From sequence record MT129654.1: DNA of 64,000 nt. One strand, written 5' to 3'. Positions 7,570 to 19,297 of the stretch are shown piece by piece. This DNA comes from Escherichia phage MN04. The notes under the pieces are model-generated. The model saw only the letters and a program-made list of their open reading frames with translations, was not told the DNA's origin and did no database searches. Every line of letters begins with the position of its first letter. Within the stretch, counting starts at the first letter, position 1. A program made the translations under genes and the position numbers.

Positions 7570-7791
7570 ATGACTACTAAAATCACTGCAAACTCGACTC
7601 GTGAAGAATTTGAAGATGTTCTGTTCAACCCTGATTTAATCGTGGTTCAAAAGGAACATTCTGATACGTTTTCTCATTTATCGTCGGTTTATGTATACGA
7701 AAATCAAGGTGATAAAAACCCTATGTATGCAGTGTTCCGTGAAATCACTGCTGAAGGCACCGACTTCTGGAAGGAAACTTACAATGCTTAA
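7570..7791 (+). CDS. Hypothetical small protein (cef position)
   Basis: 73-aa ORF from ATG 7570 with SD taaggag upstream; T4 Cef is 71 aa at the equivalent position. Confidence 0.35.
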   Translation: MTTKITANSTREEFEDVLFNPDLIVVQKEHSDTFSHLSSVYVYENQGDKNPMYAVFREITAEGTDFWKETYNA

Positions 7792-8287
7792 TCAAGAACT
7801 TGAATTTGAAAAAGGTAAATGGTACTATTTTAAAGATGACGCGGCAGAAGCTGAATTCCGTAAGCTGAATTCCCATAATATTAGGACTCCTAATAATTCT
7901 TCTATAGCAGATATTATTGTCAATTCTGAAGGTTTTTGCCCTGTTAGATTAGCGGCAGGTTATGTGATGAACGTGGACTTGGCTTATGGTGATAACATTG
8001 ATATGGTTTTATATCCAAGCGAGCGTAAATTCTTTACGGAAATGGTTGTAGTTGACAGTGAAGACGAATGGGCCGAAGATGGTTTTTCTGAAGAAGACCG
8101 GTCTGAACCGAGTGATTTCCCTTTGACTAAAATCACTATGGAAATGGGTTTAGTTGGCGGTGAAGACCAGTCTGAAGACGCAGCCCCATATGAACCGAGT
8201 GATTTCCCTTTGACTAAAATCACTATCTCCAATAATTCTGAAGCCTGGACTGTTTACCGGATGTTGAAAGCCCACTTTAAGGAATAA
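7784..8287 (+). CDS. Hypothetical acidic protein with internal tandem duplication (goF position)
   Basis: 167-aa ORF from ATG 7784; contains duplicated peptide EPSDFPLTKIT encoded by a perfect 35-bp direct repeat. Confidence 0.4.
   Translation: MLNQELEFEKGKWYYFKDDAAEAEFRKLNSHNIRTPNNSSIADIIVNSEGFCPVRLAAGYVMNVDLAYGDNIDMVLYPSERKFFTEMVVVDSEDEWAEDGFSEEDRSEPSDFPLTKITMEMGLVGGEDQSEDAAPYEPSDFPLTKITISNNSEAWTVYRMLKAHFKE
8105..8226 (+). repeat. Intragenic direct repeat (2 x 35 bp perfect, period 87 bp)
   Basis: gaaccgagtgatttccctttgactaaaatcactat at 8105-8139 and 8192-8226. Confidence 0.85.
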
Positions 8288-8288
8288 T

Positions 8289-8465
8289 ATGCCACTTTAT
8301 GATTACAAATGCCAATCCGAAGACTGTGCAAAAGAATACGAAAAAATCAAGAAAATCTCTGAAAGAGATAATGATGTTTGCCCTGATTGCCATCGGTTGG
8401 CTGTTCGGTTAGTTTCAGCTCCTAAACATGTTAACGGCGGGTTCTATGACCTGCTAACTAAGTGA
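8289..8465 (+). CDS. Small zinc-ribbon protein (CxxC ... CPxC)
   Basis: 58-aa ORF below track cutoff; YKCQSEDC ... CPDCHR, FmdB-like zinc-ribbon spacing. Confidence 0.5.
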   Translation: MPLYDYKCQSEDCAKEYEKIKKISERDNDVCPDCHRLAVRLVSAPKHVNGGFYDLLTK

Positions 8466-8471
8466 GAAATT

Positions 8472-8732
8472 ATGAAATATGTTAATCGTTCTATTGCAGC
8501 TCTTGTACTAGCAGTTTCGTTGGTTGGTTGTACTGATGCTGATAATGCCACCCGTGTATTGGATGCAAATGGCTACGAACAAATCCAAATCACAGGATAC
8601 AACTTATTTGGCTGTTCTGAAGATGATTTCCAACGTACAGGCTTTATTGCTGTAGGGCCGACAGGTAAAAGGGTTGAAGGAACAGTTTGTTCTGGGTTAT
8701 TCTTTAAAAAGTCAACCATTCGGTTTGATTAA
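8472..8732 (+). CDS. Putative lipoprotein
   Basis: 86 aa; signal peptide with lipobox LVGC (MKYVNRSIAALVLAVSLVGCTD). Confidence 0.5.
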   Translation: MKYVNRSIAALVLAVSLVGCTDADNATRVLDANGYEQIQITGYNLFGCSEDDFQRTGFIAVGPTGKRVEGTVCSGLFFKKSTIRFD

Positions 8733-8750
8733 GGGCTTCGGCCCTTTTAT
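8733..8750 (+). terminator. Rho-independent terminator
   Basis: gggcttcggccc hairpin followed by ttttat. Confidence 0.6.
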
Positions 8751-8798
8751 GCTTTAAGTGAAATGGGATAATATTCTCCTACTACATGAGGAAATAAC

Positions 8799-10616
8799 AT
8801 GATTAAGAATGAAATTAAAGTACTGTCCGACATTGAACATATCAAAAAACGTAGTGGGATGTATATTGGCTCAAGTGCTAATGAAGCTCACGGTCGATTC
8901 CTGTTTGGTAATTTTACCCAGGTGAACTATGTTCCAGGGCTAGTTAAATTAATTGACGAAATCATTGATAACTCTGTCGATGAAGCTATTCGTACCAATT
9001 TTAAATTTGCAAATAAAATCGATGTTCAAATTAAGAATAATCAGGTTTCAGTTTCTGATAATGGCCGTGGTATTCCTCAAGCAATGGTTACCGACCAAAA
9101 CGGTGAACAAATTCCGGGCCCTGTAGCTGCATGGACTATTCCAAAGGCCGGTGGTAACTTTGGAGATGACGCCGAGCGTAAAACAGGCGGCATGAACGGT
9201 GTTGGTAGTAGTTTAACTAATATCTTCTCTGTTTTGTTCACAGGCATCACCTCTGATGGTGAGAATGAGATTACTGTTAACTGTTCCAACGGAATGGAAA
9301 ACAAAGGTTGGTCTACTAAGAAATCTAAAGGTAAGGGTACTTCGGTTATATTCACCCCAGACTTTAACCATTTCGAAGAAAATAGTCTGTCCCAAATTTA
9401 TCTGGATATTACATTAGACCGTCTTCAAACACTGGCCGTAATTTATCCAGATATCCAATTTACTTTTAATGGTAAAAAAGTAGATGGCAACTTTAAAAAG
9501 TATGCTAAGCAATTTGGTGAAGACTTTGTAATCCAAGAAACCGATAATGTTTCGATGGCATTTACTCCTTCTCCGGACGGGTTCCGTCAACTGACGTATG
9601 TAAACAATATCCATACTAAGAACGGTGGTCACCACGTTGAATGTGTGTTTGATGATATCTGTGAGCACCTTCTGCCTGGTATTAAAAAGAAATATAAAGG
9701 AATCGAAGTAACTAAGGCTCGTGTTAAAGAATGCCTTACTATGGTAATGTTCATTCGTGATATGAGCAATATGCGTTTTGATTCGCAGACTAAAGAGCGA
9801 TTAACCTCTCCGTTTGGCGAGATTCGTAACCATATCCAAATTGATGCTAAGAAAATTGCAACGGCTATTCTTAAGGTCGATGGGTTGATTATGCCTATCG
9901 TCGAAGCCGCTTTAGCACGTAAACTCGCTGCCGAAAAAGCCGCCGAAACAAAAGCTGCTAAGAAAGCTTTGAAAGCCAAGGTCCATAAGCATATTAAAGC
10001 CAATATGTATGGCAAAGATGCTGATACGACTTTATTCCTTACGGAAGGTGATTCTGCAATGGGTCCTTTCATTGAAGTTCGTAATAAAGACCTCCAAGGT
10101 GGTTATCCGTTACGCGGAAAGGTTATGAATACCTGGGGTATGACTGCTGCTGATATCATGAAGAACAAAGAATTGTTTGATATCTGTGCAATCACTGGAC
10201 TGGTTATTGGTGAACCTGCAGATAAAACCAACTATCGTAATATCGCTATCATGACTGACGCCGATGTGGATGGTACTGGTTCGATTTATCCTTCGTTATT
10301 AGCTTTCTTTAGTCAGTGGCCGGAATTGTTTGAACAGGGACGAATTCGTTTCTGTAAGACTCCTGTAATCATTGCTCAGGTTGGTAAAGAACAGGAATGG
10401 TTCTATGATGTACCTAGTTATACCAAAGCTAAGGACTCTCTACCAAAACATTCCATTCGATATATTAAAGGTTTAGGTTCTCTTGAGAAAGCTGAATATC
10501 GTCGAATGATTCAAGACCCTAAATTTGATGTGGTTCAATTACCTGAAGATTGGAAAGAACAGTTCGAAATGCTCCTAGGGAATGACCCACAGCTGCGTAA
10601 GGCTTGGATGTCATAA
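8799..10616 (+). CDS. 39: DNA topoisomerase II large (ATPase) subunit, single fused 39/60-type ORF
   Basis: 605 aa; GHKL ATPase motif DNGRGIP, Toprim EGDSA; uninterrupted, unlike T4 where the C-terminal part is the separate gene 60. Confidence 0.9.
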   Translation: MIKNEIKVLSDIEHIKKRSGMYIGSSANEAHGRFLFGNFTQVNYVPGLVKLIDEIIDNSVDEAIRTNFKFANKIDVQIKNNQVSVSDNGRGIPQAMVTDQNGEQIPGPVAAWTIPKAGGNFGDDAERKTGGMNGVGSSLTNIFSVLFTGITSDGENEITVNCSNGMENKGWSTKKSKGKGTSVIFTPDFNHFEENSLSQIYLDITLDRLQTLAVIYPDIQFTFNGKKVDGNFKKYAKQFGEDFVIQETDNVSMAFTPSPDGFRQLTYVNNIHTKNGGHHVECVFDDICEHLLPGIKKKYKGIEVTKARVKECLTMVMFIRDMSNMRFDSQTKERLTSPFGEIRNHIQIDAKKIATAILKVDGLIMPIVEAALARKLAAEKAAETKAAKKALKAKVHKHIKANMYGKDADTTLFLTEGDSAMGPFIEVRNKDLQGGYPLRGKVMNTWGMTAADIMKNKELFDICAITGLVIGEPADKTNYRNIAIMTDADVDGTGSIYPSLLAFFSQWPELFEQGRIRFCKTPVIIAQVGKEQEWFYDVPSYTKAKDSLPKHSIRYIKGLGSLEKAEYRRMIQDPKFDVVQLPEDWKEQFEMLLGNDPQLRKAWMS

Positions 10617-10658
10617 TAAATACGTACGGTACATGAGTACCGTATAAAAGGAGACTTT

Positions 10659-10820
10659 ATGAGAAAGTACTGGGTTACGCTCGTCACAGGTGAATATGGT
10701 TATCTCTGGACAGATACACGTCCTCTTTTTGCAGAGTACGTTACTATCACAGTTGAAACATGGGACGGCGAAGTTTACCAAACCCGTGGTCAAGTTTATA
10801 GAGTCGATTCAAGCAACTAA
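10659..10820 (+). CDS. Hypothetical small protein
   Basis: 53-aa ORF below track cutoff, SD aaaggag before ATG, followed by terminator. Confidence 0.3.
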   Translation: MRKYWVTLVTGEYGYLWTDTRPLFAEYVTITVETWDGEVYQTRGQVYRVDSSN

Positions 10821-10824
10821 TTAA

Positions 10825-10846
10825 GGGCCGCAAGGCCCTTTTTTGG
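10825..10846 (+). terminator. Rho-independent terminator
   Basis: gggccgcaaggccc hairpin followed by tttttt. Confidence 0.7.
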
Positions 10847-10895
10847 GGTTTACAACAGATTAAAAGTGTGATACGATTCTCTAAGAGGTGAGAAT

Positions 10896-11219
10896 ATGAT
10901 TATGCAAGATAATAGTATAGTGAACACTGGCAACTTGGCTTTGTCTTTTATGGAGACCGCAATTCGCAATTGTAAAGACGAAGGAGTAGTGATTACAAGC
11001 GGCAAGGGACTAGAATATCTCAAGGCTGTAAAATCTATTGCCTTAAAGATTAAAGATAACCAGGCGCTCTCTCCTGTTGTCCAGGAAAAGGTTCTAGAGA
11101 TATTGTATCGCCACAGAGAGCACAAAAGTACAATGGGTTCTATGAGAAGAATTCTGGCTGAACTAGGTTCTACCAGAGAATATGTTCAACATGAGGTAGT
11201 TAAAAATGACAAACTTTAA
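10896..11219 (+). CDS. Hypothetical protein (rIIA.1 position)
   Basis: 107-aa ORF immediately upstream of rIIA. Confidence 0.4.
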   Translation: MIMQDNSIVNTGNLALSFMETAIRNCKDEGVVITSGKGLEYLKAVKSIALKIKDNQALSPVVQEKVLEILYRHREHKSTMGSMRRILAELGSTREYVQHEVVKNDKL

Positions 11220-11409
11220 AGTCAACATTGATTTGTTTGATAAAGCTGTCCACAAAGAATTCCGGCTAATCCAGAGATTTTTTGATATCAATGCAGCTGA
11301 AGATTTTAAAGAACGCTTTAAAGAAATCAGATATAAAATACTCAACGACATCGCTACTAAGGAAGAGCTCCTTGAAGTAGCAGATATTTTTAAACGTAAC
11401 CTGAATTGA
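11206..11409 (+). CDS. Hypothetical protein
   Basis: 67-aa ORF overlapping previous stop. Confidence 0.35.
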   Translation: MTNFKVNIDLFDKAVHKEFRLIQRFFDINAAEDFKERFKEIRYKILNDIATKEELLEVADIFKRNLN

Positions 11410-11416
11410 GAAAAAT

Positions 11417-13627
11417 ATGATTATTGAAACCGAAAAAGAACAAATCATTGGCAACGGCTCTAAGTCCACAGGATTTACTATCCAGGCTTCGCCTAAGGTC
11501 TTTAAAATTCTTTCATCAGACCTTTATAGTAATAAGGTACGTGCCGTAGTTCGTGAACTAATTACCAACATGATTGATGCTCATATTCTGAATGGTAATA
11601 AAGAACGTTGGAAAGTACAGGTTCCTGGTAAGCTCGACCCTCGCTTTGTGTGCCGTGATTTCGGCCCAGGTATGAGCGATTTCCAGATTCGTGGTGATGA
11701 AAACGAAACCGGTTTGTATAACTCTTATTTCGCATCATCTAAAACTGCTTCTAATGATTTCATCGGCGGCTTTGGCCTTGGTTCAAAATCTCCGTTCAGT
11801 TATACCGAAACGTTTAATATTACCTCATGGCACAATGGCGAAGTTCGCGGTTATGTAGCTTATATGGATGGTGATGGGCCGCAGATTAAACCTACTTTCG
11901 TAGAACCTATGCAGCCAGGTGATAAAACAGGTATCGAAATCACGGTTCCTGTCGATGAAGAAGATTTCCGTAAGTTTGAAACTGAAGTTCGATATATCAT
12001 GCGTCCGTTCATTGGACTTGGCGATGTTGACGGTGTTGAAGTTGATTATTTCCCTGAATTTGAAGACTACTATCCTGTAACCACTACAAATTATGGCAGC
12101 TTCGAACGTTCAGGACTTTATGCAGTTTATGGTGGTATTGTTTATCCATTGGATTCTGCTTATAATAAAGGCACATGGATGCGTACTCGCCATGATGTAG
12201 TTTATATTAAGTTCCCTATGGGTTCGCTGGATATTGCTCCGTCTCGTGAAGTGTTGTCTCTTGATAAACGTACGATGGAAAATATTGCAACCCGTATCGA
12301 AGCACTGGATGCAGTGGTCTTTAAAAACGATACACAAGAATGGGTTGAATCTGATAATCCACGCCATGTTTATCGCGACCTTTCTAACCTTGGTTACAGT
12401 GCTCGTGACTATCTTACCAAAAAAGGTGGGACTAGCCTGTTTACTACAGAAAAATTGACATATGAGAAATTATACCAACGTTACACACTTCAAAACGACC
12501 TTATTAATTTAGGTGTGGTTTACGAAATCGTTTCAGACCCACGTTTGAAACGAATTAAGCCGAGTGGTAATACTTCTTCGGTGGCAGGACTTAGTAGCCT
12601 ATTAGGCATTAATAATAAAGAAATCCATATTGTTTATGATGATGAAAAGGGTCGTGTGCCACTAGTTCGAGGACTTTGGGCTCTGGCAATGGACAACAGT
12701 GCTTCGGCTAAGAAAATTGTTAAAGAGAACAATATTCCTAAATACGGAACCGACCTTATTTTTGTCGACCCAAATTCAATGCTGCAAATGCAACAACTTG
12801 AAAAGGTTAAAGAACTTTTTAAAGGTGACACTATTCATTTTTATAAAGTCTCTGAACTGAATAAAATTGTTAAGCCATGGATTCCGGTTACTGTCCGTTC
12901 ATCAGAACCTCGTCCTAAAACACCAAGTGCTTATCGTTGGTTCATTAAAGACGGACGTTGGCAACAAGAGACCTTGTACTTAACTGCTGCAGAAGCAGAA
13001 GAAATTACAGGGTACGTATTGTTTGGTAGTCGTTCTGATATCATGGGAATGGACGAAGCTTATGGTATCTTTGACATCAACACCACTACCATGTGTCGTA
13101 TGGCTAATTTGATTGGTGCTACCGAATTCCATATCATTCGTCCTCAAATTGCCAAAAAGATTAAAAAGTTAGGCCAATGTGAATGCTTGATGGAAACCAC
13201 GTTAGAAGCTTATGCCCAAGCCTTAGACGAAGTAGATGTTGACGATTACCTTGGTAGTAACACCCGTGCAAGATATTATCTTGAAATCATTGCCAAGTTC
13301 CCTGAGCTAGGTTTCATGACCAAGTATTTCAGTGATAAGCCGGTGTCTGAAGCATATACTCGTCTGAGCAATTTCTATGATATATTCCGTTATATGAATT
13401 TCCATGGCTATATCACTGATGACAAGCTTTCAGTTATCAAGAAAATTTGTAACACGACGTTCTATACGTTAACCGAAAATGCTTCAAGTAACAATGATAA
13501 AATGACTATACAGTTTGAATCTGATTACCATTTAGTTTCGGACTACATGTATCGTCGTGGAACATCCATTACCGAGGCTTCTGTAGCTCAAATCGTTAAA
13601 TTCATGAAAGCCGTGGAAGCGGCTTAA
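11417..13627 (+). CDS. rIIA: rIIA rapid-lysis / RexAB-exclusion protein
   Basis: 736 aa; N-terminus MIIETEKEQIIGNGSKSTGFTIQASPKVFKILSSDLYSNKVRAVVRELITNMIDAH matches T4 RIIA as remembered; followed by rIIB. Confidence 0.92.
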   Translation: MIIETEKEQIIGNGSKSTGFTIQASPKVFKILSSDLYSNKVRAVVRELITNMIDAHILNGNKERWKVQVPGKLDPRFVCRDFGPGMSDFQIRGDENETGLYNSYFASSKTASNDFIGGFGLGSKSPFSYTETFNITSWHNGEVRGYVAYMDGDGPQIKPTFVEPMQPGDKTGIEITVPVDEEDFRKFETEVRYIMRPFIGLGDVDGVEVDYFPEFEDYYPVTTTNYGSFERSGLYAVYGGIVYPLDSAYNKGTWMRTRHDVVYIKFPMGSLDIAPSREVLSLDKRTMENIATRIEALDAVVFKNDTQEWVESDNPRHVYRDLSNLGYSARDYLTKKGGTSLFTTEKLTYEKLYQRYTLQNDLINLGVVYEIVSDPRLKRIKPSGNTSSVAGLSSLLGINNKEIHIVYDDEKGRVPLVRGLWALAMDNSASAKKIVKENNIPKYGTDLIFVDPNSMLQMQQLEKVKELFKGDTIHFYKVSELNKIVKPWIPVTVRSSEPRPKTPSAYRWFIKDGRWQQETLYLTAAEAEEITGYVLFGSRSDIMGMDEAYGIFDINTTTMCRMANLIGATEFHIIRPQIAKKIKKLGQCECLMETTLEAYAQALDEVDVDDYLGSNTRARYYLEIIAKFPELGFMTKYFSDKPVSEAYTRLSNFYDIFRYMNFHGYITDDKLSVIKKICNTTFYTLTENASSNNDKMTIQFESDYHLVSDYMYRRGTSITEASVAQIVKFMKAVEAA

Positions 13628-13641
13628 TCTAAGGAAATATT

Positions 13642-14610
13642 ATGTACAATATTAAATGTCTATCCGAATCTGAACAGGTTGAAATCGTTAAGTTATATAT
13701 TTCTGGTAATTATACCCAACAAGAACTAGCCGACTGGTATAGTGTATCAGTTGATACAATCCGCAGAGTTTTGAATAACCATAAAGAAGCAGGACAAGCA
13801 CAAGTGGTTATTACCGGAAATATTACGGTAACGGTTCCTAACGAGCCTCGTGTAGTTCCGGTTGAAGTTACTATTGGTGGCTCTCGTCCGGAAATTATCT
13901 GGAACGCCAGTTCTAAATTCGTATCCATCACTGAAGGTCGTACAGTATGGAATACTACTAATAAGAACAAACACTTTGATGCCATCGTACAGGCCCTTAA
14001 AGAATCCCGTTTTGATGATGCGATTAAACTGATTTCCATTAAAGAAGCTGTTAAGGCTTTCGTTAAAGGTAACGTTCGTATTGAAGGTGGACGTCTGGTT
14101 TATCAAGGTATCGAATTGCGTTCAGGGTTGATTGACCGTATTATCACCTCAATGGAAAATGGCGAAGATTTTGAATTCTACCTGCCGTTCCTTGAGAATC
14201 TGTTAGAAAACCCAAGCGAAAAAGCTGTACAGCGTCTGTTCGACTTCCTGGTCGCGAACGATATCAAAATCACTGAAGACGGCCACTTTATCGCATGGAA
14301 AGTTGTTAATTCCGATTACACCGACTGCCGTACTGGTACGTTTGATAACTCGCCAGGTAAGCCAGTTAAAATGCCTCGTTCGCGTGTAAATGATGACGAC
14401 GAAGTAACTTGTTCAAGTGGTCTGCACGTTTGCTCTCGTAGCTATATTGGTCATTTTGGTAACTCTAACTGTAAAGTAGTTTCATGCAAAGTTAACCCGC
14501 GTGATGTTGTTAGTATCCCAGTTGATTATGGTGATGCTAAAATGCGTGTATGTTATTATGAAGTTCTGGAAGACGTCACTGAACAGTTCGCAAACGAATA
14601 CAAATACTAA
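13642..14610 (+). CDS. rIIB: rIIB protein
   Basis: 322 aa directly downstream of rIIA; size and synteny as in T4 (312 aa). Confidence 0.85.
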   Translation: MYNIKCLSESEQVEIVKLYISGNYTQQELADWYSVSVDTIRRVLNNHKEAGQAQVVITGNITVTVPNEPRVVPVEVTIGGSRPEIIWNASSKFVSITEGRTVWNTTNKNKHFDAIVQALKESRFDDAIKLISIKEAVKAFVKGNVRIEGGRLVYQGIELRSGLIDRIITSMENGEDFEFYLPFLENLLENPSEKAVQRLFDFLVANDIKITEDGHFIAWKVVNSDYTDCRTGTFDNSPGKPVKMPRSRVNDDDEVTCSSGLHVCSRSYIGHFGNSNCKVVSCKVNPRDVVSIPVDYGDAKMRVCYYEVLEDVTEQFANEYKY

Positions 14611-14847: not shown

Positions 14848-15165
14848 ATGATTAATTTCATGAACGTCGGCGACGAAGATATCAAAGATAGTTATCTCCA
14901 AGGTAATCATGTGGCCGATAAGGTTTATTGTGTGGATGTAATCAAATCTGATAAAGCTACAGGCCATCTTTTTGCAACAGATGTGATTTTCGATTCAGTT
15001 GAAAACCTTAAAAAATTAGACCACAGTAAATTGAGTGAAAACTCTCGTATCTATTTTGGTAATGTTCACGTCGAAGAATTGTATATTGGTGGTGATTATG
15101 AATCCGTCAAATCCGGGACTAGTTCGACTGTCGAAGATGCCGACATTTACCCTGAAGACATCTGA
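14848..15165 (+). CDS. Hypothetical protein (D-region)
   Basis: 105-aa ORF from ATG 14848; 3' end overlaps next ORF in another frame. Confidence 0.35.
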   Translation: MINFMNVGDEDIKDSYLQGNHVADKVYCVDVIKSDKATGHLFATDVIFDSVENLKKLDHSKLSENSRIYFGNVHVEELYIGGDYESVKSGTSSTVEDADIYPEDI

Positions 15166-15178
15166 TTTAACGGGTGAA

Positions 15179-15655
15179 ATGAAGGTCAAGATTAAGGATA
15201 CCGTATTGTATTCCTTAAGCCAGGACCCATCCCAAGATAAGAAAGAAGTATTGACTCGGTGTGTTATTGCAACGTATGCAGAGTACATGGTGGCTGATTG
15301 GTTGAAAGGATATGTCAACAGTGGTCTGGAAGACCATGACGACCCTTATACCTACGCCTGGGACGTTTTAGCCCATCCTATGTACTGTGGACTACGTGTA
15401 GAGGTCAAGACCCACCAATCTGATTCTAAGTGGATTTCCTGCACTACAGGATACTCAGGTGACTTCCCTTATGGAACAGGGATAAACCTAGGACCGCTCT
15501 TGAATCATAAAGTTGCAGACTGTATAATTATATTCGACACTTCAGTAAATGAGGCAGGCGACGTCCTGTTCACTCCTAAGTTCTCTGGTGACAGAGAATC
15601 CATCAAAAAGCTAGTCCGTAAGAGTAATTACAACGGCTGGTATCTCGCCTTATAA
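15179..15655 (+). CDS. Hypothetical protein (region where T4 has denB; identity unverified)
   Basis: 158-aa ORF from ATG 15179 (track ORF begins at GTG 15035 inside the previous ORF). Confidence 0.3.
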   Translation: MKVKIKDTVLYSLSQDPSQDKKEVLTRCVIATYAEYMVADWLKGYVNSGLEDHDDPYTYAWDVLAHPMYCGLRVEVKTHQSDSKWISCTTGYSGDFPYGTGINLGPLLNHKVADCIIIFDTSVNEAGDVLFTPKFSGDRESIKKLVRKSNYNGWYLAL

Positions 15656-17917: not shown

Positions 17918-19297
17918 ATGGCTGATGTAATTGATACCCTTTTTAAACAATCCTTAGATGTTTACGATGATGCTTTTACTCGTCGTGACTTAAAAAGCAT
18001 TATCGACAATGAAGCGCTGGCTTATGCAATGTATACTGTCGAAAACCGCGCCATTCCAAATATGATTGATGGCTTTAAACCTGTACAACGTTTTGTAGTT
18101 GCTCGTTGTCTTGATATGGCTCGTGGTAATAAAGAAAAATTCCACAAACTAGCTTCTATTGCAGGTGGTGTAGCCGACCTTGGATATCACCACGGTGAAG
18201 GTTCTGCTCAAGAAGCAGGTGCTCTGATGGCTAACACATGGAACAACAACTTCCCACTGTTGGATGGCCAAGGCAACTTTGGTTCTCGATTAGTTCAAAA
18301 GGCTGCAGCCTCTCGTTATATTTTTGCACGAATTGGAACTAATTTCGCAAAGGTTTATAAGGATACAGAATATGCTCCGGTTCATGCGGATGTCGAACAT
18401 AAGCCACCAGCTTTTTATCTGCCTATTATTCCTACTGTTCTTCTTAATGGTATTTCCGGTATTGCGACTGGTTATGCAACTAATATTCTTCCTCATAGTT
18501 TTGATTCTGTTAAGAAAGCTGTATTGCAGGTTCTTCAAGAAAAACGCGTAACCAAGCCTAAGGTGGCTTATCCGGAATTCCGTGGCGATGTGGTTGAGAT
18601 TGAACCAGGTAGTTATGAACTACGAGGCACGTATAAGTTCACATCTCGAACCCAAATGCATATCACAGAAATCCCGTACAAATACGACCGTGAAACGTAC
18701 GTGGCCAAGGTACTGGACCCTTTAGAAGACAAAGGGTATATCACGTATGATGACGACTGTGACGAGAATGGTTTCGGCTTCAAGGTTAAGATTCGTAAAG
18801 AATATGAATTGCCTACTGAAGAAAATAAGAAGCATGAAAAAATCATGAAGGACTTCGGGTTAATCGAACGTCGTTCGCAAAACCTGACCGTCATTAATGA
18901 GAAAGGTAAACTTAAGGTTTACGAAGATGTAGTTGAACTGATTCGTGATTTCGTTGAGGTCCGTAAGACCTTTGTACAAAAACGTATTGATGGTAAAATC
19001 ATCGAAACCGAAGAAGCTTTCAAACTGGCATTGGCTAAAGCTACATTCATTAAAGATGTTATTGATGGTGTGGTGGTTATCCAAGGTAAGACCCGTAAAG
19101 TTTTAACCGAAGAATTGGCCAGCAATAAAGTCTACGGTGAATACGCTGATAAACTCGTAGCAATGAATATTTTCCATATCACGTCCGATGAAGCTAAGAA
19201 ACTGGCTTTGGAAGCCAAGGCTAAGAAAGAAGAGCACCAATACTGGAAAACCACTGATGTTGTAACTGAGTATGTTAAAGATTTGGAGGCTCTATGA
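17918..19297 (+). CDS. 52: DNA topoisomerase II medium subunit (GyrA-like breakage-reunion)
   Basis: 459 aa; N-terminus DLKSIIDNEALAYAMYTVENRAIPNMIDGFKPVQRFV is the gyrase A-type segment remembered from T4 gp52. Confidence 0.9.
   Translation: MADVIDTLFKQSLDVYDDAFTRRDLKSIIDNEALAYAMYTVENRAIPNMIDGFKPVQRFVVARCLDMARGNKEKFHKLASIAGGVADLGYHHGEGSAQEAGALMANTWNNNFPLLDGQGNFGSRLVQKAAASRYIFARIGTNFAKVYKDTEYAPVHADVEHKPPAFYLPIIPTVLLNGISGIATGYATNILPHSFDSVKKAVLQVLQEKRVTKPKVAYPEFRGDVVEIEPGSYELRGTYKFTSRTQMHITEIPYKYDRETYVAKVLDPLEDKGYITYDDDCDENGFGFKVKIRKEYELPTEENKKHEKIMKDFGLIERRSQNLTVINEKGKLKVYEDVVELIRDFVEVRKTFVQKRIDGKIIETEEAFKLALAKATFIKDVIDGVVVIQGKTRKVLTEELASNKVYGEYADKLVAMNIFHITSDEAKKLALEAKAKKEEHQYWKTTDVVTEYVKDLEAL

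Follow-up and report, generated by a model that had tools for sequence, protein, structure and literature searches.

We find that the open reading frame (ORF) at 8799–10616 of Escherichia phage MN04 is very probably an intact gene 39 of a JS98-like Dhakavirus, encoding in one piece the type IIA, GyrB/ParE-like topoisomerase large subunit that T4 divides between gene 39 and gene 60. All positions refer to the window, the whole 64,000-nucleotide stretch of record MT129654.1 that was analysed. The initial annotation had described a 605-aa ORF running uninterrupted across the region split in T4, and this holds exactly as stated. The main features of the gene are as follows.

8799–10616, plus strand: gene 39, topoisomerase II large subunit; uninterrupted ORF with an ATG start, 605 aa, comprising ATPase, transducer and Toprim regions
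8955–9206, plus strand: GHKL ATPase motifs DEIIDN (aa 53–58), DNGRG (aa 87–91) and GGMNGVG (aa 130–136), located by motif search on the translation
10044–10058, plus strand: Toprim catalytic glutamate motif EGDSA (aa 416–420), upstream of the T4 split point

By our own arithmetic, the chance of 605 stop-free codons at about 40% GC is near 1e-17, and phrog_543 ('DNA topoisomerase II large subunit') covers aa 1–605 end to end with an E value of 3.5e-281; the ORF is therefore not a product of chance. The solved chain 8ylu_C matched across aa 1–605 (phmmer, E = 0), and the T4 gp39–gp60 construct 8yo3_C was matched as well. The GHKL ATPase domain is present with its N-box, G1 and G2 motifs (Pfam HATPase_c, aa 47–189, 41.3 bits against a cut-off of 26.4), followed by the transducer domain (Pfam DNA_gyraseB, 50.4 bits against 27), in which a motif search placed the QTK loop at aa 330–332. 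A single chain also carries the complete Toprim domain, with EGDSA at aa 416–420 and DADVD at aa 487–491. The Pfam models Toprim (17.6 bits against 23.1) and TOPRIM_C (21.7 bits against 29) scored below their curated cut-offs, which is offset by the presence of the motifs and by the full-length match to the structural homologue 8ylu_C; the Toprim region aligns without gaps both to this chain and to T2/T6 gp39. All catalytic motifs of gp39 are present and contiguous.

Alignment to T4 located the positions at which the T4 gene is interrupted.

10215–10229, plus strand: equivalent of the T4 insertion of about 1 kb; 15 nt encoding P-A-D-K-T (aa 473–477), delimited by blastn blocks, codon listing and protein alignment
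10230–10274, plus strand: equivalent of T4 'homR', the MobA homing site; contains the Toprim DxDxD motif DADVDG (aa 487–492, 10257–10274)
10274–10277, plus strand: equivalent of the T4 50-nt coding gap; 4 unaligned nt, compared with 54 nt in T4 (2853–2800; annotated gap 2803–2852)

The window gp39 is collinear with T4 gp39 and then gp60, with zero extra residues: aa 1–474 correspond to T4 gp39 1–473 (366/474 identical, 77%) and aa 474–605 to T4 gp60 28–159 (100/132 identical, 76%; E 2e-73). The ORF is therefore the fused equivalent of both T4 products, as proposed initially, with a gp60 part of about 132 aa rather than the C-terminal ~90 aa first given; the 100 identities also dispose of the possibility, raised at the same time, that the C-terminal part is unrelated to gp60. 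Where the window has 15 nt, T4 has 1018 nt (coordinates 3915–2898) made up of the gp39 C-terminal extension (CTE), mobA/60.1 and the gp60 N-terminal extension (NTE), all of which are absent from the window. In T4, this insertion follows aa 472 and amounts to a foreign tail of about 44 aa on gp39, the HNH endonuclease gene mobA and a foreign head of about 30 aa on gp60, whereas the window has a single ORF with five residues at the site. In T4, 50 untranslated nt also follow Gly46 of gp60. At this position the window reads GAT GGT ACT GGT TCG in frame, codon 492 (GGT) being the counterpart of the T4 GGA take-off codon, and there is no untranslated gap of about 50 nt flanked by matching GGA codons for take-off and landing, and no stop behind the take-off site. 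Folding of 10240–10330 gave no sign of a take-off stem-loop (z = +1.13; 179/200 shuffles fold at least as well).

Searches for the cassette agreed with the alignment breakpoints, and the initial claim that the endonuclease gene mobA and the 50-nt bypass are both missing is borne out. We queried the whole 64-kb window by tblastn with four protein sequences (intact MobA of T4T, the C-terminal extension of gp39, the N-terminal 30 aa of gp60, and gp60.1 of T4) and by blastn-short with cassette element DNA and the 50-nt gap. All matches to cassette parts (MobA, CTE, NTE, gap) had E values of at least 0.027 and none lay near gene 39; the best MobA match (E 0.10) falls inside rIIA and was judged to be chance. 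Rfam and tRNA scans across the full 64 kb were empty, and no group I intron was recognizable. Together, these results indicate that gene 39 of the window bears no sign of any past invasion. The initial annotation had pointed to 10617–10895 for remnants of the bypass element. Nothing was found there, and the T4 insertion and gap both map inside the ORF; since the insertion is internal to gene 39, this interval is the wrong place to look, and an insertion of the T4 type should be sought within gene 39, at about aa 472–492, not downstream.

The placement comparison covered 29 kb of the window. DNA identity is 98.2% to Escherichia phage JS98 over 4 kb and 93.7–95.5% to JS98/JS10 over 25 kb, and the gene order is the same as in JS98. 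The JS98 gene (gp39, YP_001595132.1; NC_010105) has the same 1818 nt, is 97.9% identical in DNA and differs by two amino acids (603/605 identical), and it has the same neighbours, 39.2 and 39.1 before gene 39, then rIIA.1 and rIIA. In the sequence records JS98, WG01 and IME08 are classified in the genus Dhakavirus, and T2, T4 and T6 in Tequatrovirus. We assign the window phage, by these comparisons, to the JS98-like phages of the genus Dhakavirus, for which JS98 serves as type phage.

The unsplit gene had at first been taken to mark the phage as belonging to a T2/T6-like lineage, as opposed to that of T4, a placement that we now regard as extremely unlikely. T2 and T6 do share an unsplit gene 39 of 1818 nt and 605 aa, collinear with that of the window over its full length, with its domains in the same order and the motifs shared. 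However, JS98, JS10 and their relatives give the best matches at both 4 kb and 25 kb, gp39 itself is nearest to JS98, and the T2/T6 gene is only 78% identical in protein and 73% in DNA. Because gp39 is 77% identical to T4 and 78% to T2/T6, the phage is equally distant from both; T2/T6 gp39 is itself 93% identical to T4 gp39 with the T4 foreign tail counted. (The 73% is codon-aligned, as a one-codon indel near codon 301 separates the window and T2 genes; a position-by-position value of 50.8% to T2 is an artefact of this indel.) The window shares neither the genus-level DNA likeness nor the local gene order of T2/T6: in these phages rIIA.1 lies 54 nt after gene 39, whereas in the window the distance is 589 nt and holds two extra genes that T2, T4 and T6 lack at this position. 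Furthermore, the junction is covered without interruption in 1046 of the 1133 phage records with this gene (92%; 87 otherwise), in many genera including phages of Klebsiella, Acinetobacter, Yersinia and Serratia, and the T4 mobA insert is present in only 43 records. A state shared by 92% of records carries no lineage signal; the unsplit gene 39 is best read as the shared ancestral, majority state and the T4 split as the known exception, so that the unsplit gene is not usable as a lineage marker. Uninterrupted 'parental' genes have been described in every clade with insertions (Manning & Atkins, bioRxiv 10.1101/2022.08.31.505936).

Two other origins of the continuous ORF were weighed. An ancestor could have carried the MobA cassette and had the gene later restored to one ORF, a 'hit and run' of the kind described for re-fused genes in Aeromonas phages, but this is very unlikely here. 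The known hit-and-run genes retain CTE- and NTE-derived residues inside the ORF (both points from Manning & Atkins, bioRxiv 10.1101/2022.08.31.505936), whereas the window gp39 has exactly the T2/T6 length of 605 aa, no more than five variable residues where the insertion would lie, and no detectable CTE or NTE similarity; nor, among the best 30 relatives listed, does any record span indicate a 1-kb insertion. If recombination had cleanly swapped in an uninvaded allele, however, no trace would be expected, which leaves re-fusion a very small chance. To the remaining explanation we give next to no chance: that continuity is an artefact of assembly or mis-called bases, or that the gene is a decaying pseudogene. 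Nothing found speaks for it. In JS98, WG01, IME08 and VR7, the annotated topoisomerase II large-subunit gene ends just ahead of the same set of following genes; JS98 has the same gene length; the catalytic motifs are all intact; and the 39 nucleotide differences from JS98 comprise 36 synonymous and 3 non-synonymous changes (dN/dS 0.02). An intact gene 39 without sign of past invasion remains the preferred reading.

The stretch between gene 39 and rIIA contains the following.

10625–10644, plus strand: stem-loop 9 nt past the gene 39 stop; 8-bp stem by scan, 9 bp by fold (one more pair on each side)
10659–10820, plus strand: ORF53, a conserved small gene with an AAGGAG ribosome-binding site at 10648–10653; phrog_4369, E 1.1e-29
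10823–10844, plus strand: GC hairpin resembling a terminator (AAGGGCC-GCAA-GGCCCTT), with a T run after it
10896–11219, plus strand: ORF107, a DUF7367 protein; Pfam DUF7367, E 3.2e-43; phrog_5382
11206–11409, plus strand: rIIA.1, 67 aa; Pfam T4_RIIA1, E 6.8e-30; annotated as rIIA.1 in JS98
11417–13627, plus strand: rIIA; phrog_612, E 7.7e-233; annotated in JS98

The initial annotation had a 53-aa ORF and rIIA.1-like ORFs following gene 39. The 53-aa ORF and the 67-aa rIIA.1 stand, but the 107-aa ORF is a DUF7367 protein: it gave no alignment to rIIA.1 at E ≤ 100, and the two belong to separate Pfam families (DUF7367 and T4_RIIA1). ORF107 is preceded by a promoter-like site (10849–10877) and a GAGGTGA ribosome-binding site; its single-sequence AlphaFold2 model, predicted to be all-helical, is poor (mean pLDDT 57.6). 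As RNA, the stem-loop folds at −13.8 kcal/mol (z = −3.9) and the terminator-like hairpin at −17.8 kcal/mol (z = −3.4). NCBIfam gave no match for ORF53, ORF107 or rIIA.1, and PADLOC paired ORF53 with DruF (E 0.004, 28 residues), a match dismissed as chance. ORF53 and ORF107 are conserved in Dhakavirus and both are under purifying selection (dN/dS 0.05–0.09 for ORF53 against WG01/IME08, and about 0.04–0.06 for ORF107). ORF53 is annotated in WG01, has a syntenic gene in VR7 and has no annotation in JS98 or IME08. In the JS98 record, both small genes between 39 and rIIA.1 are unannotated though the ORFs are present in the DNA; neither of these two conserved genes is annotated in JS98 or IME08. As a separate observation, a direct-repeat search found a 22-aa duplication in a goF-like gene upstream in the window, which is absent in JS98 and was missed by Tandem Repeats Finder.

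The Dhakavirus gene 39 could also be a cleavable, so far uninvaded homing site, with JS98-like phages as a naive population, a tentative reading that we consider rather unlikely. The homR equivalent at 10230–10274 is no more diverged from the T2 target (35/45 identical) than is the T4T copy (33/45), and the T4 homR copy is reported to remain a target for nicking once the 50-nt gap is removed, which together speak for cleavage; the position of the MobA nick site is taken second-hand from Manning & Atkins (bioRxiv 10.1101/2022.08.31.505936). Two points weaken the case: of the 30 nt downstream of the gap position, only 16 are identical to T2, and identity in the flanking DNA is 73%, which would hinder homologous repair. 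If the site is cleavable, the MobA/bypass cassette could spread into JS98-like phages on co-infection. The locus could in addition serve as an uninvaded comparison allele for studies of MobA homing. That gene 39 is unsplit in T4 relatives was already known for T2/T6 and many other clades, and the same gene is annotated in JS98; a literature search combining JS98, gene 60 and topoisomerase retrieved no papers. The discovery value is accordingly small, and our check is mainly corrective.

The window also encodes a partner for gp39.

17918–19297, plus strand: gp52-type topoisomerase II medium subunit (DNA-cleavage, GyrA/ParC-like), 459 aa; phrog_551 'DNA topoisomerase II', E 2.8e-208

This ORF matches NCBIfam models of the GyrA/ParC type with E values of 1e-36 to 6e-46, all under the equivalog cut-offs. 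On the model that we propose, the one 605-aa chain, with its GHKL ATPase, transducer and complete Toprim domain, would by homology to the T6 enzyme join the gp52-type subunit in an A2B2 enzyme that would use ATP to pass one DNA duplex through another. A MobA homing-endonuclease cassette has invaded this gene in T4 and its close relatives; it divides Toprim between the two metal-binding motifs, puts a foreign tail on each half and introduces the 50-nt translational bypass. With the cassette absent, the window gene would be translated conventionally and the enzyme would have two subunits, not three.

Bacterial GyrB/ParE share the GHKL ATPase, transducer and Toprim architecture of the window gp39. 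The bacterial gyrB/parE NCBIfam models align to it over nearly its full length (E 1e-50 to 4e-68) and bacterial gyrase and topoisomerase IV chains in the PDB match it, but its scores are far under the equivalog cut-offs (in one case 230 bits, with 740 required), which place it as a phage-specific branch relative to the bacterial proteins. C-terminal domains like those of the bacterial partner subunits are missing from the T-even enzymes; T4 is the sole three-subunit case, and T6 topoisomerase II, which has been solved structurally, is a heterotetramer of gp39 and gp52 (PMC11461880). PDB 8ylu and related entries are probably this T6 enzyme, the 611-aa chain fitting a T6 gp39-His6 construct. By analogy with the two-subunit topoisomerase II of T2/T6, the window gp39 would be expected to work in the same way with gp52.

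Gene 39 of this phage, which encodes the topoisomerase large subunit, is a real and rightly delimited ORF (8799..10616, + strand, ATG start, 605 aa in the ORF listing). Its product matched PHROG 543 'DNA topoisomerase II large subunit' end to end (E 3.5e-281), exceeded the curated cut-offs of both Pfam HATPase_c and DNA_gyraseB, and shares the MIKNEIK N-terminus with T4 gp39; the ATG is preceded, ~7 nt away, by a GAGGAA ribosome-binding site. Base composition across the ORF is unremarkable (36–43% GC), and by our own arithmetic the chance of 605 stop-free codons at ~40% GC is near 1e-17.

To compare this ORF with the split genes of T4, gp39 and gp60 were taken from NC_000866, the annotated 50-nt gap was removed and both were aligned to the window protein. 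Residues 1–474 correspond to T4 gp39 1–473 (366/474 identical, 77%) and residues 474–605 to gp60 28–159 (100/132, 76%, E 2e-73), confirming the initial annotation's reading of one unsplit ORF spanning both T4 genes. The C-terminal residues are thus clearly related to gp60, over ~132 aa rather than the ~90 aa then claimed. At the DNA level, homology to T4 fell into three blocks in all:

10134–10214, block 1, equivalent to T4 3996–3916
10230–10273, block 2, equivalent to T4 2897–2854
10278–10610, block 3, equivalent to T4 2799–2467

Blocks 1 and 2 lie 15 nt apart in the window (Pro-Ala-Asp-Lys-Thr, aa 473–477) and 1018 nt apart in T4, where the C-terminal extension of gp39, mobA/60.1 and the N-terminal extension of gp60 are found. 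Blocks 2 and 3 are separated by 4 nt versus 54 nt, and the 50-nt excess of T4 coincides with its annotated bypass region (2803–2852). The window frame there reads GAT GGT ACT GGT TCG, with GGT at 10272–10274 (Gly492) as the counterpart of the T4 GGA take-off codon.

Next, the whole 64-kb window was searched for the element itself. Because the reference T4 record has a pseudogenised mobA, the intact 272-aa MobA of T4T (HM137666) served as query; the other queries were T4 gp60.1, the C-terminal extension of gp39, residues 1–30 of gp60, the DNA of the element and that of the 50-nt gap. Only chance-level matches were obtained (best E 0.027, inside rIIA), none of them near gene 39, and tblastn detected no MobA-like protein in 1–64000. 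The predicted RNA fold around the take-off equivalent (10240–10330) is no more stable than those of shuffled controls (z = +1.13). Across 1–64000 no Rfam family reached its gathering score, therefore no group I intron was recognised, and no tRNA genes were found. On the Rfam, tRNA and tblastn tests the stretch shows none of T4's introns or MobA-type HNH elements, and the absence of bypass and mobile endonuclease proposed earlier holds. A gene re-fused after a 'hit-and-run' insertion would also be unsplit, and in Aeromonas phages such genes retain extension-derived residues (Manning & Atkins, bioRxiv 10.1101/2022.08.31.505936); the window gp39 equals T2/T6 gp39 in length to the residue and has zero extra residues at the insertion site, which counts against this origin.

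In T4 NC_000866 (2971–3767), mobA is annotated in two pieces, '60.1' plus a short fragment labelled as pseudogene 'mobA', while T4T (578–1396) and most other records carry a single intact 272-aa ORF; the two DNAs are 98% identical and differ by 11 nt in length. The divided gene is consistent with the pseudogenisation reported for mobA in the laboratory T4 strain (Manning & Atkins).

Manning & Atkins, drawing on Bonocora et al. 2011, place the MobA nick ~20 nt upstream of the gap position and state that T4's diverged copy of the site can still be nicked as long as the 50-nt gap is missing. The 45-nt site equivalent (10230–10274) is identical to T2 at 35/45 positions, versus 33/45 for the T4T copy; over the 30 nt beyond, the values are 16/30 and 25/30. 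On sequence grounds the window allele is no more than a possible MobA site.

The junction was then followed in other phages with a 301-nt query (10100–10400) that covers both T4 interruption points and is too short for the search's joining rule to bridge a 1-kb insertion. It matched 1133 phage records, and in 1046 of them (92%) a single place accounts for at least 80% of the query; the hosts of these phages include Escherichia, Klebsiella, Acinetobacter, Yersinia, Serratia and Pectobacterium. T4-type records matched partially (41%), at two places; a 41% partial match also came from Acinetobacter phage KARL-1, which Manning & Atkins name among genomes whose MobA endonuclease is pseudogenised or partly deleted. 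By megablast the T4 mobA insert occurred in only 43 records, the best 40 of which were all T4 or Tequatrovirus-type phages. The T4 gene was split by mobA insertion relative to related phages (PMC2988022), and every clade with insertions also has uninterrupted 'parental' genes (Manning & Atkins). The unsplit gene 39 is the ancestral, majority state, an ordinary and already known feature that carries no lineage information.

Consequently, the affinity with T2/T6-like lineages once drawn from the unsplit gene could not be upheld. Region 8000–12000 is 98.2% identical in DNA to Escherichia phage JS98 (Straboviridae, Tevenvirinae, Dhakavirus by its record), which has the same 1818-nt gene 39 annotated, and 20000–44999 best matched JS10, EcWhh-1, IME281 and JS98 at 94–96%. 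The window gp39 is identical to that of JS98 at 603/605 residues, compared with 78% for T2 or T6 and 77% for T4; T2/T6 and T4 gp39 share 93%, with T4's foreign tail counted. Codon-aligned gene 39 DNA gave 97.9% with JS98 and 73% with T2/T6. T2, T4 and T6 are all Tequatrovirus, and this phage is thus as distant from T4 as it is from T2/T6.

T2, T4 and T6 have only 54 nt between the topoisomerase gene and rIIA.1, with nothing at the position of the two small ORFs (ORF53 and ORF107) found here, whereas the window has 589 nt:

10614–10616, gene 39 stop codon
about 10624–10645, 9-bp hairpin (−13.8 kcal/mol, z = −3.9)
10659–10820, ORF53, preceded by an AAGGAG ribosome-binding site (phrog_4369, E 1e-29)
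10823–10844, GC hairpin with GCAA loop, then a T run (−17.8 kcal/mol, z = −3.4)
10849–10877, promoter-like site
10896–11219, ORF107, preceded by a GAGGTGA ribosome-binding site (Pfam DUF7367, E 3e-43)
11206–11409, rIIA.1 (Pfam T4_RIIA1), overlapping the ORF107 end
11417–13627, rIIA

The initial annotation had these ORFs standing 'instead of' the T4 insertion, which actually sits elsewhere, within the gene; it also called the 107-aa ORF rIIA.1-like, but this is DUF7367 with no detectable similarity to rIIA.1. About 50 records contain both ORFs conserved over their full length; of these, WG01 and IME08, the ones with taxonomy checked, are Dhakavirus. Syntenic counterparts also occur in Gaprivervirus VR7, and no record of T2, T4 or T6 type was among the 40 listed matches to their interval. 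The two ORFs are real genes under purifying selection, because dN/dS against WG01 and IME08 is 0.04–0.09, and they lack annotation in the JS98 (NC_010105) and IME08 records. NCBIfam and PADLOC gave nothing usable for their function, and the structure predicted for ORF107 from its sequence alone was of too low quality for use (pLDDT 57.6).

Gene 39, ORF53 and gene 39.1 each have a stable hairpin directly after the stop codon (for gene 39.1 at 8731–8746), those after ORF53 (GCAA) and gene 39.1 (TTCG) having tetraloops and terminator-like T runs. Upstream, a goF-like gene (7784–8287; 'putative RNA metabolism modulator' in JS98) has an in-frame insertion of 22 aa not seen in JS98, created by a partial direct duplication (8090–8139 and 8177–8226; 50 nt, 88% identical, 87 nt apart) that Tandem Repeats Finder missed; the peptide EPSDFPLTKIT is now present twice. 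Downstream, rIIB and a DenB-like endonuclease IV (13642–14610, 15035–15655) are T4-type early genes, and their order with the gp52-type gene agrees with the T4-type early region.

Finally, motif search located the catalytic elements, all in the single 605-aa chain, and the partner gene was identified:

aa 53–58, 87–91 and 130–136, GHKL ATPase motifs DEIIDN, DNGRG and GGMNGVG
aa 330–332, transducer QTK loop
aa 416–420, Toprim glutamate motif EGDSA
aa 487–491, DxDxD motif DADVD
17918–19297, gp52-type topoisomerase II medium subunit, GyrA/ParC-like (phrog_551, E 2.8e-208)

The protein aligned end to end (E = 0) with the solved 611-aa chain 8ylu_C, probably the T6 gp39-His6 construct of PMC11461880, whose length fits; it aligned also with 8yo3_C, the T4 gp39-gp60 construct. 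By homology, gene 39 mRNA would be translated conventionally and the enzyme would be a gp39(2)gp52(2) type IIA topoisomerase, in both activity and subunit composition. Among type IIA topoisomerases, that of T4 is described as unique in having three subunits, those of T2 and T6 having two (PMC11461880), and the T4 split, after ~aa 472, separates the two Toprim metal-binding motifs (Manning & Atkins); the Toprim domain divided in T4 is whole in the window gp39.
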